A program made the translations under genes and the position numbers. This document shows, piece by piece, positions 37,936-41,607 of a stretch of 64,000 bases of DNA. Below the pieces are notes generated by a model that saw only the letters and a program-made list of their open reading frames with translations, did no database searches and had not been told where the DNA came from. Origin of the DNA: an uncultured delta proteobacterium (GTDB lineage Bacteria > Desulfobacterota > Binatia > Bin18). Location: contig CAVTCR010000019.1 of NCBI GenBank assembly GCA_963733195.1, positions 1 to 64,000 of the forward strand, given 5' to 3'. Numbering within the stretch: the stretch's first letter is position 1; every line of letters begins with the position of its first letter.

Positions 37936-38954
37936 ATGGCTAAATTCGATTACTCTGCGTATTACCGTCGTCTCCAGGACCTCAAGAAACTACAGATCCC
38001 AACAGAGTCGGTTTGCTGGACCGAGCAGTATCGTCCGCCGGAGCGAACGTATGACATTGTTCTGTATCTCGGCTGCAATATTTTACGCACGCCGGATGTG
38101 GCGGCTGATGTTGTCACTGTGTTCCGGGCGCTGGGGCTCGATTTCATCGCGGTGGCTGGGGTGCAGTTCTGTTGCGGGATCACCTGGGATCGGTTTGGCA
38201 ATGTCGCCAAGGGACAGACTGTGGCGGATTTGACGATTGAGCGACTCGCCTCATACAAGGCGCGGGTCGTCGTCCACTGGTGTCCGTCGTGTGACGTGCA
38301 TTTCTCTGATGTCGTCACTGGACGGGATGCGAAAACAATTCCCTTTGAGGTAACTGATGCACCAGCATTCTTAGCCGCACTCAGTCAGCGCGGGCAGATA
38401 CCGTGGCGTCATGCCGTCGCCGGTCGCGTGGCACTTCATAGCCACAGCGGACGAGAAGGCCACGAGGCCGGCCAGCGGCGCGCACACGCCGATCAAGAGC
38501 ATGTCAGTTATCTTCTGTCGCAGATTCCCGGCCTGCACTTCCTTGGCGCGGTTACGGCTCCAGGAGAGTTTGATTACGATTGTGGTCCCAGTTCAATACG
38601 CGTAGAGCGCGCGCGTTGGCTCGCGCGCGTGCGGAACAATTGGGCACCGTGCGGCGACTTGGCGCGGAGACGTTGGTGACAGTCTCGCATGCGTGCCAAC
38701 GTGAATGGTGCGATGTGAGTGACAACACGCTGACCGTACGTAACTACATCTCTCTTGTAGCTGAAGCAATTGGCTGCACCCGGAGTTACGAGAGTGATAC
38801 ATTAGGGCGTTTGAAGCACCTGGGGGACCTTGACGCTCTTGTTGAGAGTACCCAGGCCAATTGGACGAGTCATGGATTAAGCAAAGAACAGGCAGAAGAG
38901 ATTGCCCACAAGTATTCCTGGGCCACTCCAGCGCCGCGCTCGTCGGCACCGTAA
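37936..38954 (+). CDS. CCG-domain Fe-S protein (frameshift near 38632)
   Basis: YLGC, QFCCG, WCPSC, DCG, SHAC. Confidence 0.7.
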
Positions 38955-39173
38955 GGGAAGCCCGCTGCTGCATAAAAGGAGGTTGTCAGCAGGCAGCGTG
39001 AACAATGAATCATACGGACTCTCTGTGAGGCCTATTCATTTCCGCATGCTTCGACTCCGCTACCGCCGCAGCGTACCTTGAGCCCTGAGACCTGTATGAT
39101 GGATGTTGAGCTGAACAGCGAGTGCTCTTGTACATGGTGGCAAAGCCCACCAGAGCGGCCAGGAGGCACGACG

Positions 39174-40260
39174 ATGAACAGCGCAGCATTCATTCCGATG
39201 GAATACGATATTTTTGCAGGACTCGATGTGGACAAGCGACGGTATAGCGGTGACGTTTACCGATCACCAAGGAGGAATGCGCTCGGTGGGAATGCCCTAT
39301 AAGGTGGACCATTTGGTAAACTATGTCCGCAAACATTTTCCCGACAAGAAAGTGGCCTTTGCCTATGGAGCTGGACCGACGGGGTATGGATTGCATGATG
39401 GGCTGGAGGCGCAAGCCTATCGGTGTGTGATCGCCTCGCCCGCGATGATTCCACAAGCACCGGGACAACGTGTGAAGACTAATCGCCTCGACAGCCGCAA
39501 ACTGGCAGAGAGTTTGCGGGGAGGACAACTCAAACCGATTCACGTGCCCTCCGGCCCGTATCGAGAACTGCGGCATCTGACCCAGTTGCGCGATGCCTTT
39601 GTCAGTGAACTGGTAGGGATGAAGCAACGGATCAAATCGTTGCTGTTGGTGGAAGGGCTGGAGTTTCCGCCCGCCCCCGCGGGCAGTCAGTGGTCGGGGC
39701 GTGTCAAACAGCAATTGCGCCAGTTGCCCTGTACACTGACGGTGCGGTTCAAACTCGATCAATTGCTGGACAGTGTGGAGTTTACCGAAAAACAGGTGGT
39801 CAAAACCACCCGCGAGATTCGCCGGTTTTGCCAGACCGAGCCCGAGTTGGCGCAGTGTCTCCACTATCTGATGAGCATCAGTGGCATTGGCTGGATTGTG
39901 GGGACGCAATTGTTGGCGCGTATCGGGGATTGGCGCGAGTTGAAAAATATCCGTCAGTTGGCAGGCTTTCTGGGCTTGGTCCCGACCGAGCATTCCACGG
40001 GCGAGAAAACCGTGCGGGGCTCGATTACCCACAGCGGCGATCCGCGGCTCCGCAGTAAACTCATCCAAGCCGGCGTGGTCGGCGATCCGTCAAGACGGGG
40101 AGTTGCGCGAATTCTATCGCTCCGTCTGTCACACCCATCCCCGCCATCTCGCCGCGCGAGTGGCCATTGTCGCCGTGGCCCGCAAACTCAGCGTGCGCAT
40201 TGCTGTAGTCCTGATGCAACAACGCCCTTATGAGGTCCGCAAAAAAGTTGTGTTTGACTC
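39174..40260 (+). CDS. IS110 DEDD recombinase (frameshifted)
   Basis: AGLDVDK, AYGAGPTG, KTNRLDS, GLVPTEHSTG, AVARKL; end approximate. Confidence 0.88.
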
Positions 40261-40495
40261 CGTTGACCCAAGAGGAGACCGCGCCCCAGGGCACGACTCG
40301 ACAACAAGCAGAAACAGGAGAGAATCTCTCCTAACGGTTCGCTCCTTGAGACAGAGAGCCCGGGGCCGCAGGCCCATGAGAGGGGCGCATCCCATGTCAG
40401 TGTGACGGCCGTCGTGCCGTGCCACGTATAGCAGCCAGTCTCTCTTTGGTCAGACGGTACAGAGTCATAAAAAAAGAGACCTCGTATGTTTGTAC
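40260..40495 (+). ncRNA. candidate bridge/seek RNA in the 3' non-coding end of the IS
   Basis: donor-matching atagcag (40428-40434) and tacag (40458-40462) around a hairpin; target-matching tcgacaa (40298-40304). Confidence 0.55.
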
Positions 40496-40546
40496 CTTGA
40501 CATCCACATAGCAGCTTGTCGAAGGGGCGAAGGGGAAGTCGAAGGC

Positions 40547-41555
40547 TCATCCAATCGCGTGGTCTCCAAGAGTAAGCACGATCTTGCCAATTTGGGCATC
40601 GCTGAGCATGTAGGCATGCGCCTCGGCAATCTGCTTGAACGGGAACGTACGGTCGAGTACGGGTTTAAGTGCACCCGTAGAAAAAGCACCCAGCAGGTCA
40701 GCGGCGCAGCGCTCACTACAAACTAATGCTTCTTCTGGCGTGCGAGTACGAAACGTAACGCCAATAATACTCGCACGTTTACGCGCAACCTCATCGAGGT
40801 TACAGTCGCCAACCTGGCCGGCGTTGCGTCCGACGCTCACTAACCGCCCCTTAATCCCCAGCACGCGAATATTATCGGCGAGCATCGGCCCACCGACTTG
40901 GTCGATAATCACATCAATGCCATGCTGGCCTGTCGCGGTGAGAACAGCCTCAACCCAACCTGCTTGACTGGTGTCGATGATCTCAGTGCGCACCAAGCGC
41001 ACGCAGAGCACCCCCTTTGGCCGCTGACCTTGTCGTGGCCATCACCGGATGTGCGCCGAAGTAGCGTGCGATCTGAATCGCCGCTGTGCCGACTCCTGAT
41101 GAACCAGCAGTGACCAGCACGGACTCGCCTGGTTTGATCGCAGCATTGCTGACTATGGCATCATGTGCAGTAACGAAGACATTGGGAATAGCGGCAGCTT
41201 CGGCCCATGACATGCCATCGGGAATCCGCATTAAGGCGCGCTGAGATACTACCGTGTACTCGGCGTAACCAGCACCGCGGGCCATGATACGATCCCCGGT
41301 TGTCCATCCGCTTACTCCCTGACCGAGCGCGACGATTTCACCAGCGAATTCAATACCCGTGCGCATCGGTTTGGCTGCCGGATTGTCTGACCGTAGAAGC
41401 GGGCGCGCAAGCAGTTCGCCGCGATTAGTCCCTGCAGCACGTACAGCCACAAGGACCTCACCAGGCCCTGGAGTTGGCACGGGGATTTGACGGAATTCGT
41501 ACACTCCACCCTCAGGACCGGGAACAACAAACAATGCCTGCATGGTTTGGGTCAT
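40547..41555 (-). CDS. MDR-family quinone oxidoreductase (frameshift near 40990)
   Basis: GIEFAG, FVTAHDA, AGSSGVG, GKIVL. Confidence 0.85.
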
Positions 41556-41607
41556 GATGAAATCTCCTCTTTTTTCAAGAAAGGTGCGTCGGCAACGCAA
41601 CTCGGTC

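Follow-up and report, generated by a model that had tools for sequence, protein, structure and literature searches.

A decayed, probably RNA-guided IS1111-type insertion sequence in a REP-like repeat of an uncultured Binatia genome, and the covariation of guide words with targets among its relatives

How does an insertion sequence settle in one kind of repeat of its host genome, and can a copy found there still act? Both questions are raised by an element of the IS110 family, 1427 base pairs (bp) long, that occupies positions 39088–40514 (forward strand) of the window, i.e. the whole stretch of 64,000 nucleotides (nt) that was analysed, comprising positions 1 to 64,000 of contig CAVTCR010000019.1 in assembly GCA_963733195.1, from an uncultured delta proteobacterium (Desulfobacterota; Binatia; Bin18). 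We conclude, with considerable confidence, that it is a decayed RNA-guided insertion sequence of the IS1111 type within this family, and that it was inserted in a repetitive extragenic palindromic (REP)-like repeat via its own RNA. Direct support comes from its ends, its target, the conservation of two promoter halves, the covariation of three positions or segments of the RNA, and the motifs of the protein family. The principal new result is the natural covariation between guides and targets, which would locate two target guides and a single partner-matching letter.

The element, its gene and its site are made up as follows:

39088–40514, forward strand: the whole element, with ends that were read and are shared by relatives
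39088–39089 and 40513–40514, forward strand: the copies of the AG core at the element ends, read directly
39083–39087, forward strand: the left target half, CCCTG, in the REP-like repeat, read directly (CCTG in relatives)
40515–40526, forward strand: the right target half, CTTGTCGAAGGG, in the REP-like repeat, read directly and matched by genomic repeats
39174–40334, forward strand: the transposase frame, with its ATG at 39174 behind GGAGG (39162–39166) and its TAA stop at 40332–40334, from the open reading frame (ORF), Pfam and relatives

The first letters of the element are AGACCTGTATGATGGATGT, at 39088, and the last are CTTGACATCCACATAGCAG, at 40514; the left flank terminates in GAGCCCTG (CCCTG), and the right flank begins with CTTGTCGAAGGGG. 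The short core AG stands at each junction, as against a single AG in paralogous sites that are uninterrupted, and there are no terminal inverted repeats at the very ends. The initial annotation held that removal of the element restores a REP-type site, and this proves correct: taking it out with one AG leaves CCCTG-AG-CTTGTCGAAGGG, the interrupted site being a REP-like repeat of the form CCTG|AG|CTTGTCGAAGG, and a paralogous, uninterrupted unit that matches the empty site is found elsewhere in the same genome, at C22:28797. Within this host genome (G000; 6.9 Mb in 87 contigs, 93% complete), there are 19 exact copies of CTTGTCGAAGGG, or 115 if one mismatch is allowed, most of them reading ...CCTGAGCTTGTCGAAGGG... 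Sites of the form CCTGAG-N3-8-TCGAAGG number 57, and their commonest spacer, CTTG (11 sites), gives the exact target interrupted here. The repeat family thus acts as a landing pad in this uncultured lineage, and the guide of the element fits the commonest repeat variant of its host. Additionally, three near-identical stretches of ~70 nt with GAGCTTGTCGAAGTTCGCCC (C10:4266, C11:11028 and C46:43000) constitute a separate repeated element in which the core of the REP word recurs.

Relatives of the element have the same ends, and most of them sit in the same REP type, which answers the proposal that other copies be aligned. DNA matches were obtained in seven of 61 genomes (60 relatives plus the host). 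There, all eight left junctions read ...CCTG|AGAC(C/T)TGTATGATGG, and eight of nine right junctions read ...CACATAGCAG|N3-5-TCGAAGG, the exception being the second copy in the host genome. This copy (C87:13281–14283, reverse strand; 85% identical) is frame-shifted, lacks the first 427 nt and has a right flank that is not REP-like; in its locus (L002, C87:11781–15783) it begins abruptly at element position 428 beside unrelated sequence, and its −35 word is TTCACA. No further left or right element ends were found in the host genome beyond those of these two copies, nor was an intact copy found in this 93%-complete assembly. A protein-based scan of species-representative genomes yielded 29 loci; copies in named metagenome-assembled genomes (MAGs) add 25 to those of the related genomes. 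The hosts are MAGs of Candidatus Binatia, 'Deltaproteobacteria', Nitrospira, Acidobacteriota and similar, and identical copies lie at different sites within several genomes. A metagenome scan, queried with the 19-nt right end, contributed at least 120 stretches. Over all the loci collected, TCGAAG is present in 82 of 131 distinct right flanks, the remainder including quite different targets, and 25 of 42 distinct left flanks end in CTG. Relatives having both ends are 1424–1488 bp long.

The last ~240 nt of 58 distinct copies were aligned, and long invariant blocks were found to be broken by short hypervariable words. The region is predicted to encode a guide RNA with the following parts:

40285–40449, forward strand: predicted guide RNA core, CCCAGGG to TCTTTGG, a conserved block in the 58 relatives
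40299–40309, forward strand: right-target guide CGACAACAAGC, antisense to G plus CTTGTCG of the target, identified by covariation
40317–40331, forward strand: hairpin 1, GGAGAG-aatc-TCTCC, between both target guides, with compensatory changes at four pairs
40344–40352, forward strand: candidate left-target guide CCTTGAG, sense of CC(C)TG plus AG with one unpaired letter, then AC, suggested by covariation under a bulge model
40400–40425, forward strand: hairpin 3, GTG-ACGGC ... GCCGT-GC-CAC, with compensatory changes at two pairs (GC to AU in three sequences, CG to UA in one)
40428–40435, forward strand: putative left-donor guide ATAGCAG, repeating the right terminus and the core in the same sense, then a C matching the first right-flank letter, from the alignment, with covariation of this extra letter
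40437–40442, forward strand: AGTCTC, a right-donor guide or a stem strand from its sequence, complementing both AGACT of the ACTTG-type left ends and GAGAC (40348–40352) of the RNA itself

The first variable word follows CTCGACG and, in the window, is the reverse complement of the right flank directly past the core; with the letter at 40303 given as G or A, the guide reads CGAC(G/A)ACAAGC. Word and flank change together: ACAAG is found with CTTGT, ACAGG with CCTGT, ATAAA with TTTAT and ATAGA with TCTAT, and likewise ACTTTG with CAAAGT, AGAGCC with GCTCT, TTGCGC with CGCAA and CCGCAC with TGCGG. Targets that are not REPs are matched too (CGCCGCAC with TGCGGTG, and CGTTGCGC with CGCAACG). For 79 unique pairs of guide and flank, in which 39 distinct guide segments are represented, the longest antisense match averages 5.25 nt; shuffled pairings gave a mean of 2.81 (sd 0.14, maximum 3.44), and none of 2000 reached the observed value. 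Moreover, 21 of 36 distinct variable words match an own flank over at least 7 nt. Contigs from soil agree with the conserved block as far as 40302, beyond which their guide words differ, several variants coexisting within single samples. At 40303 the window itself reads A and the near-identical copies read G; this A spoils CGACAAGC and by chance makes TCGACAA (40298–40304). That heptamer had been proposed in the initial annotation as the complement of the right target, placed after a hairpin: the assignment was real, in that it overlaps the guide at 40299–40309, but the word stands in the reading frame and before hairpin 1.

One might suppose instead that the transposase alone recognizes a folded REP, the matches in the RNA region being by-products, e.g. 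REP fragments captured in the 3' end. The site does lie within a palindromic repeat, the modelled empty site being strongly palindromic with a predicted fold of −46.4 kcal/mol; the left flank is near-invariant (CCTG), so that recognition could be partly by protein or structure; and the stem-loop of the ISPpu10 target is reported to add specificity beyond base pairing (preprint 10.64898/2026.03.19.712850). However, the guide word is antisense, stands at a fixed place between conserved RNA blocks and changes with the flank in many lineages, including those with non-REP targets, and such sites would not be tracked by a captured REP fragment. We therefore regard this explanation as very improbable.

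Even harder to credit is the view that the conserved 3' block serves chiefly as a protein-coding tail with a transcription or translation signal, such that the covarying word is to be read as amino acids. The right-target word does fall within the final codons of the transposase; most copies keep the frame open across this guide and hairpin 1, with the stop at CTCC-TGA/TAA, and lengths of 385–386 amino acids (aa) dominate among the best 120 homologues. In loci L003/L020, however, a stop inside the right-target guide gives a 375-aa protein in an element whose ends and target are perfect, so that the tail is dispensable. Moreover, the variable letters pair with flanking DNA, as coding constraint would not predict, and the conserved block runs 115 nt past the stop.

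The second variable word, after hairpin 1 and GGTTCG, ends in (T/G/A)GAG and is followed by AC, the first two post-core letters of the left end of the element; in the window it reads CCTTGAG (40344–40350). It fits the left flank plus core if one RNA letter, four letters from its 3' end, is left unpaired: CC-T-TGAG with CC-TG|AG, GC-T-TGAG with GC-TG|AG, GCGC-T-AGAG with GCGC-AG|AG, and GCGAT-T-TGAG with GCGAT-TG|AG. For 58 unique pairs, this one-letter-bulge model gives a contiguous match of 3.52, compared with 2.67 on shuffling (0 of 2000 shuffles reach 3.52), and a model with no bulge gives 2.14, compared with 1.94 (reached by three of 2000). The covariation is weaker than that of the right word, and the left flank varies little. 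Most likely, CCTTGAG is the left-target guide that the initial annotation had called unclear. The guide order in the RNA would then be an antisense word followed by a sense word.

The third sequence that tracks the flanks is associated with ATAGCAG, which follows hairpin 3 (40428–40434) and recurs as the terminus of the element (40508–40514). It had been noted at the outset as the left donor plus core, and it is indeed present and invariant, or nearly so, in the 58 sequences. The letter after it is the one with which the right flank begins in 58 of 60 unique combinations; counted per guide, the agreement is 34 of 34, and none of 5000 shuffles came up to this. The second letter after it correlates with the type of left end, C going with ACCTG in 11 cases and A with ACTTG in 24. 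However, C goes with ACTTG in a further 8 cases, and the letters concerned are not pairing partners. The two sense words thus appear to mimic the junctions present after insertion, namely target-AG-AC and ATAGC-AG-first target letter. This placement of extra letters beside the sense words may represent a mechanistic difference from IS621, or may have a bearing on excision, for which context is provided by PMC13626964 and 10.64898/2026.08.31.748434. As three positions or segments of the RNA track the flanks, the proposal of guide/target covariation has survived the comparison across homologs.

Beyond AGTCT, no conserved antisense word was seen for the left end, of which ACTTG is the commoner type. 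The suggested right-donor complement, TACAG (40458–40462), fails: this position reads GTACAAAC, GATAAAGAAG, GTACGAGAG, GGATAAGAG and others in relatives sharing the left end, and so is not conserved. Other right-donor candidates were CAAGT between hairpins 2 and 3, ACAG past the left-target word, and the loop of hairpin 3; none of these tracks the ACCTG, ACTTG, ACAAG and ACTTA left ends.

Folding of the 3' region, which had also been proposed, gave a mixed outcome. Hairpins 1 and 3 are backed by compensatory changes, seen once a divergent lineage was included in an alignment of 24 sequences, and the global fold differs between the two alignments. In particular, the 58-sequence alignment shows two long-range stems, GAGAC/GTCTC and CCCAGGGA/TCTTTGG, which are absent from the 24-sequence alignment and are not claimed. 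An Rfam scan of 38800–40800 returned five matches at E 2.7–7.2, far below gathering scores, and none within 40285–40449. In two metatranscriptome libraries there are contigs over parts of the gene and over 40201–40460 and 40261–40411, a weak hint that close relatives are transcribed.

The source of such a transcript may be sought in the ends of the element, where two features are conserved in relatives:

39095–39106, forward strand: left subterminal inverted repeat, TATGATGGATGT, the first six letters of which, TATGAT (39095–39100), form a putative −10 half
40497–40510, forward strand: putative −35 half TTGACA (40497–40502), overlapping the right subterminal inverted repeat, ACATCCACATA (40500–40510)

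From TTGACA there are 12 nt to the right end, and from the left end 7 nt to TATGAT; joining the ends at one shared AG therefore places the two hexamers 17 nt apart, as previously described for this copy, and the circle junction would form a promoter. TTGACA is kept in eight of nine right ends in related genomes and in every right end among the named-MAG copies; metagenome loci were not counted, since the 19-mer used for their selection contains it. TATGAT is kept in all eight left ends in related genomes and in 20 of the 25 named-MAG copies, the rest having TATGAG (four) or TGTGAT (one). The subterminal inverted repeats, likewise foreseen, comprise 7 bp of perfect pairing and match at 11 of 12 positions with one gap; the left arm is inset by 7 nt, and the right arm by 4 nt, from its own end of the element. 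Owing to the one-letter gap, an automated repeat search of the element did not list this repeat. An internal promoter candidate at 40298–40325 (a single 9/12 match, against a shuffle mean of 0.5) was not used.

Membership of the IS110 family is likewise secure. The main ORF matches PF01548 (DEDD_Tnp_IS110; E 4.7e-10) and PF02371 (Transposase_20; E 5.6e-18), which, together with the ends shared by relatives, upholds the original identification of a family member with readable ends. Among 8000 candidates scored, 4792 homologous proteins were obtained at E <= 0.001; the best 120 are 77–100% identical, mostly 385–386 aa long, and all carry both Pfam domains. Of 401 genomes sampled from the phylum, 17, the host among them, match at E <= 1e-30; the matches outside the host are all 29–35% identical and too divergent for RNA alignment. 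The closest protein in a plasmid collection has 35% identity, and IS5075 has 24%. Protein comparisons made use of an intact relative, P0001 (375 aa), which displays GLDVDK, AYEAG, KTNRLD and GLVPTEHSTG; the decayed loci L045 and L047, which contain stops, were left out of the protein alignment. P0001 matches the solved structures of ISCro4 (E 1.5e-9) and, weakly, IS621 (E 2.7e-8), chiefly in the C-terminal domain. In the latter match, Ser241 of IS621 aligns with the Thr of EHSTG, and KTDTVDA aligns with KTNRLDS, such that an Asn takes the place of one Asp (D102 by chain-number count). The Asn (of KTN) and S-T-G are common to IS5075 and a homologue on a Mesorhizobium plasmid, and therefore appear to be traits of that wing of the family and not defects. 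Indeed, the alignment to IS5075, a named IS1111-group protein, covers 81% of the protein length at 24–26% identity and keeps K(T/S)N..D, GLVP....STG and the overall domain order; IS5075 differs in its length (334 aa, as against 375–386 aa here) and in its target.

Transposases of the IS1111 group are described as having 330–350 aa and the motif GL-P----S(t)G (PMC11187229), and the group as having subterminal inverted repeats of ~7–17 bp (PMC11208160). Here, the motif is present as GLVPTEHSTG, and the length of TATGATGGATGT/ACATCCACATA lies in this range. IS1111-type seekRNAs have an antisense and then a sense word, the reverse of the IS110 type (PMC11187229). The element is short at its left end (86 nt precede the transposase ATG) and long at its right end (180 nt succeed the stop). 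We place it in the IS1111 type because of the Asn and S-T-G shared with IS5075, the subterminal repeats, the short left and long right ends, and the guide order.

Could the copy in the window still move? The initial annotation saw Gly at the expected catalytic Glu (AYGAG) together with frameshifts, and both are there: the AYGAG codon is GGA at 39367–39369 (GAA, for Glu, in relatives), and single extra letters at 39243, 40070 and 40248 break the frame. With three frame breaks, the catalytic Glu replaced by Gly and a substitution in the guide, the copy as assembled would be unable to act. It looks like an ordinary dead insertion, a fossil. Contigs from four public soil and rhizosphere runs were compared with the window. 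Copies there are ~98% identical; one contig of 1512 nt differs by 29 letters and five gaps over the whole element and sits in another REP unit. These soil copies are without the extra letters at 39243, 40070 and 40248, and have A at 39368 (restoring GAA) and G at 40303 (a perfect guide). In the four runs, contig cover was absent for parts of 38700–40900 outside the element, from which nothing is concluded.

It might be argued that local errors of assembly account for the three frame changes, and perhaps for the Gly codon, and that the genome carries a working element. Exactly these three letters are absent from the near-identical soil copies, and both neighbouring genes are also frame-split. 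Nonetheless, the assembly as a whole is not indel-ridden (there are 62 stop-to-stop frames of at least 1000 aa, and 698 of at least 500 aa); the extra letter at 39243 lies outside any letter run; substitutions are also present at two sites of function, in the Glu codon and in the guide; and the sole other copy in the genome is also truncated and frame-shifted. We consider assembly error an unlikely cause, albeit one with some claim to attention, and treat the element as decayed.

Several observations weigh against an RNA-guided, IS1111-type element. No flank match of at least 7 nt was found for 15 of the 36 guide variants, and the sequences are related, so that the shuffle tests overstate independence. 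The right flank of the C87 copy, CCTGGCAAGAAG, fits its own guide at few places only. As regards ATAGCAG, the termini barely vary and the metagenome loci were chosen with the 19-nt right end itself; moreover, loci L021 (...GCAA) and L023 (...GTAG) have changed termini and an unchanged RNA word. Among the words of the RNA region tested against variants of the left end, no convincing antisense guide for that end was found. The two alignments give different long-range pairings, compensatory support being confined to hairpins 1 and 3, and the metatranscriptome contigs over the RNA region may be DNA carry-over. Finally, the transposase is only 24–26% identical to IS5075 and, at 375–386 aa, longer than the 330–350 aa quoted for the IS1111 group.

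Taken as RNA-guided, the intact relatives would be excised as a circle that joins the right end to the left at a single AG. The circle junction would build the TTGACA-17-TATGAT promoter, reading into the transposase gene and onward into the RNA region. The RNA would start in the last ~50 nt of the reading frame, carry an antisense word of ~8 nt for the right target side and, past a hairpin, a sense word for the left target side plus the AG core; further on would come sense ATAGC-AG (right terminus plus core) and one letter matching the first target letter. A DEDD-type recombinase with a Ser/Thr-Gly nucleophile loop would then exchange strands at AG, so that the element comes to lie, flanked by AG, within the REP-like repeat. 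We infer the production of the RNA, the circle and catalysis from sequence.

Each component foreseen in the initial annotation has precedents in the family: REP targeting (ISPa11, ISPpu9 and ISPpu10), a junction promoter (ISEc11 and ISPpu10), subterminal repeats with a downstream RNA (IS1111 group), and programmable guides (seekRNA and bridge RNA). REP-targeting IS1111-type elements with a seekRNA or bridge RNA have already been published (PMC11187229, PMC11208160), and the element is a new member of these, in a clade far from those characterized. The 'new programmable recombinase/RNA pair' of the initial annotation is, then, new as a member and not as a kind. No paper on IS110 elements in Binatia was found in a literature search; the clade may stand in the supplementary lists of PMC11208160 or PMC11187229.

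Among the closest known systems is ISPa11, an IS1111-group element of Pseudomonas aeruginosa that targets REPs and has a non-coding region downstream of tnp, the seekRNA of which co-purifies with the transposase; in this seekRNA a top-strand complement lies 5' of a bottom-strand match (PMC11187229), and the element here has the same layout and guide order. The REP, the host lineage and the termini differ, and the first guide of the present element falls within the end of its reading frame; ISPa11 is likened by description only. The same holds for ISPpu9 and ISPpu10 of Pseudomonas putida KT2440, IS110-family elements that also lie in REPs (PMC12288879). ISPpu9 has a small RNA (sRNA) gene downstream of tnp and free-standing sRNA (ssr9) modules, which the mini elements described below recall. 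Circles of ISPpu10 form a strong hybrid promoter, whereas those of ISPpu9 form none, and Ssr9 is reported not to be required for ISPpu9 transposition (PMC12288879). In ISEc11 (IS1111 group) the circle junction creates an active promoter and the downstream non-coding region is essential (PMC11187229); here, the halves would be 17 nt apart in a predicted promoter. The target of ISEc11 is short and linear, unlike the REP targeted here.

IS621 (IS110 group; PDB 8wt6) shares the DEDD RuvC-like domain, the Tnp domain with a Ser-Gly nucleophile loop and a two-letter core, as well as a sense guide covering the left arm and the core, an antisense one covering the right arm, and extra 'handshake' letters that match the partner DNA (PMC11208158). 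Its RNA, however, is in the left end with guides in the order left then right, whereas here the RNA is in the right end with the order right then left. Furthermore, the handshake letters of IS621 stand beside the antisense guides (PMC11208158); the covarying letter here stands beside the sense donor word. A tentative suggestion, for which we think the odds unfavourable, is that the clade uses a variant guide-RNA architecture undescribed for IS1111-type elements. The grounds for it are that the right-target guide is contained within the final codons of the transposase; that the target guides flank a hairpin in a junction and do not face each other across one loop; that the partner-matching extra letters (AC, and the first target letter) are on sense, not antisense, guides; and that the left end has scarcely any RNA guide, or none, and may instead be read by the protein via the subterminal repeat. 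If this were true, strand order or the control of excision might differ from those of IS621.

RNA-guided IS110/IS1111 recombinases are under development as genome-writing tools. The clade is abundant in soil and groundwater metagenomes, with many members ~80% identical, and is far from the characterized members. Its 36 distinct guide variants, many with their own flanks, form a natural retargeting series and hence a rule set for the RNA letters that set the insertion site; L003/L020 provides an intact orthologue in which such rules could be tested.

Mini elements without a transposase account for four of 112 right ends having at least 330 nt upstream, and were recognized by their end sequences:

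L010, ~1473–1640: mini element
L011, reverse strand, 169 bp: mini element with its right end at locus position 280
L090, reverse strand, 169 bp: mini element
L059, reverse strand, 320 bp: mini element

Three of them are 168–169 bp long, the left end being joined to the last ~150 nt, and the fourth (320 bp) keeps the whole RNA region. The end sequences are proper in all four and the usual REP-type flanks are present in three; the left flank of L059 ends in TTTG, not CCTG.

Variation in the right end was also seen elsewhere. At L025 (3838–3956), a full copy has a second right end immediately behind it, 118 bp on; this end is a partial repeat beginning at TCAGTGTGACGG in the RNA region, and the REP-type flank comes only after it. 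The right junctions of L055, L033, L105 and L117 have an extra CAG (or CAGC) between ...ATAGCAG and the guide-matching stretch, which looks like a slipped or duplicated cut. Additionally, a divergent lineage (L049, L053, L102, L119 and L145) has the left end AGACAAGTATG(T/C)TGG and a hairpin 1 of other sequence; it targets GC-rich palindromes such as TGCGGTGACCTGTCACCGC, which are not of the REP type, and its guide words match them.

The two neighbouring genes are both split. At 40547–41600 (reverse strand), a zinc-type dehydrogenase gene falls into two frames that overlap near 40983–41011: the ORF at 40983–41600 matches ADH_N and profile positions 1–36 of ADH_zinc_N, and that at 40547–41011 matches positions 36–119 of ADH_zinc_N together with ADH_zinc_N_2. 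The split marks either a pseudogene or an assembly indel at this place. On the other side, at 37936–38954 (forward strand), a gene for a CCG-domain (cysteine-rich) protein appears to lie in two frames that overlap at 38580–38679; the Pfam match is in the first part only, and by eye the second part reads like the rest of a second CCG domain.

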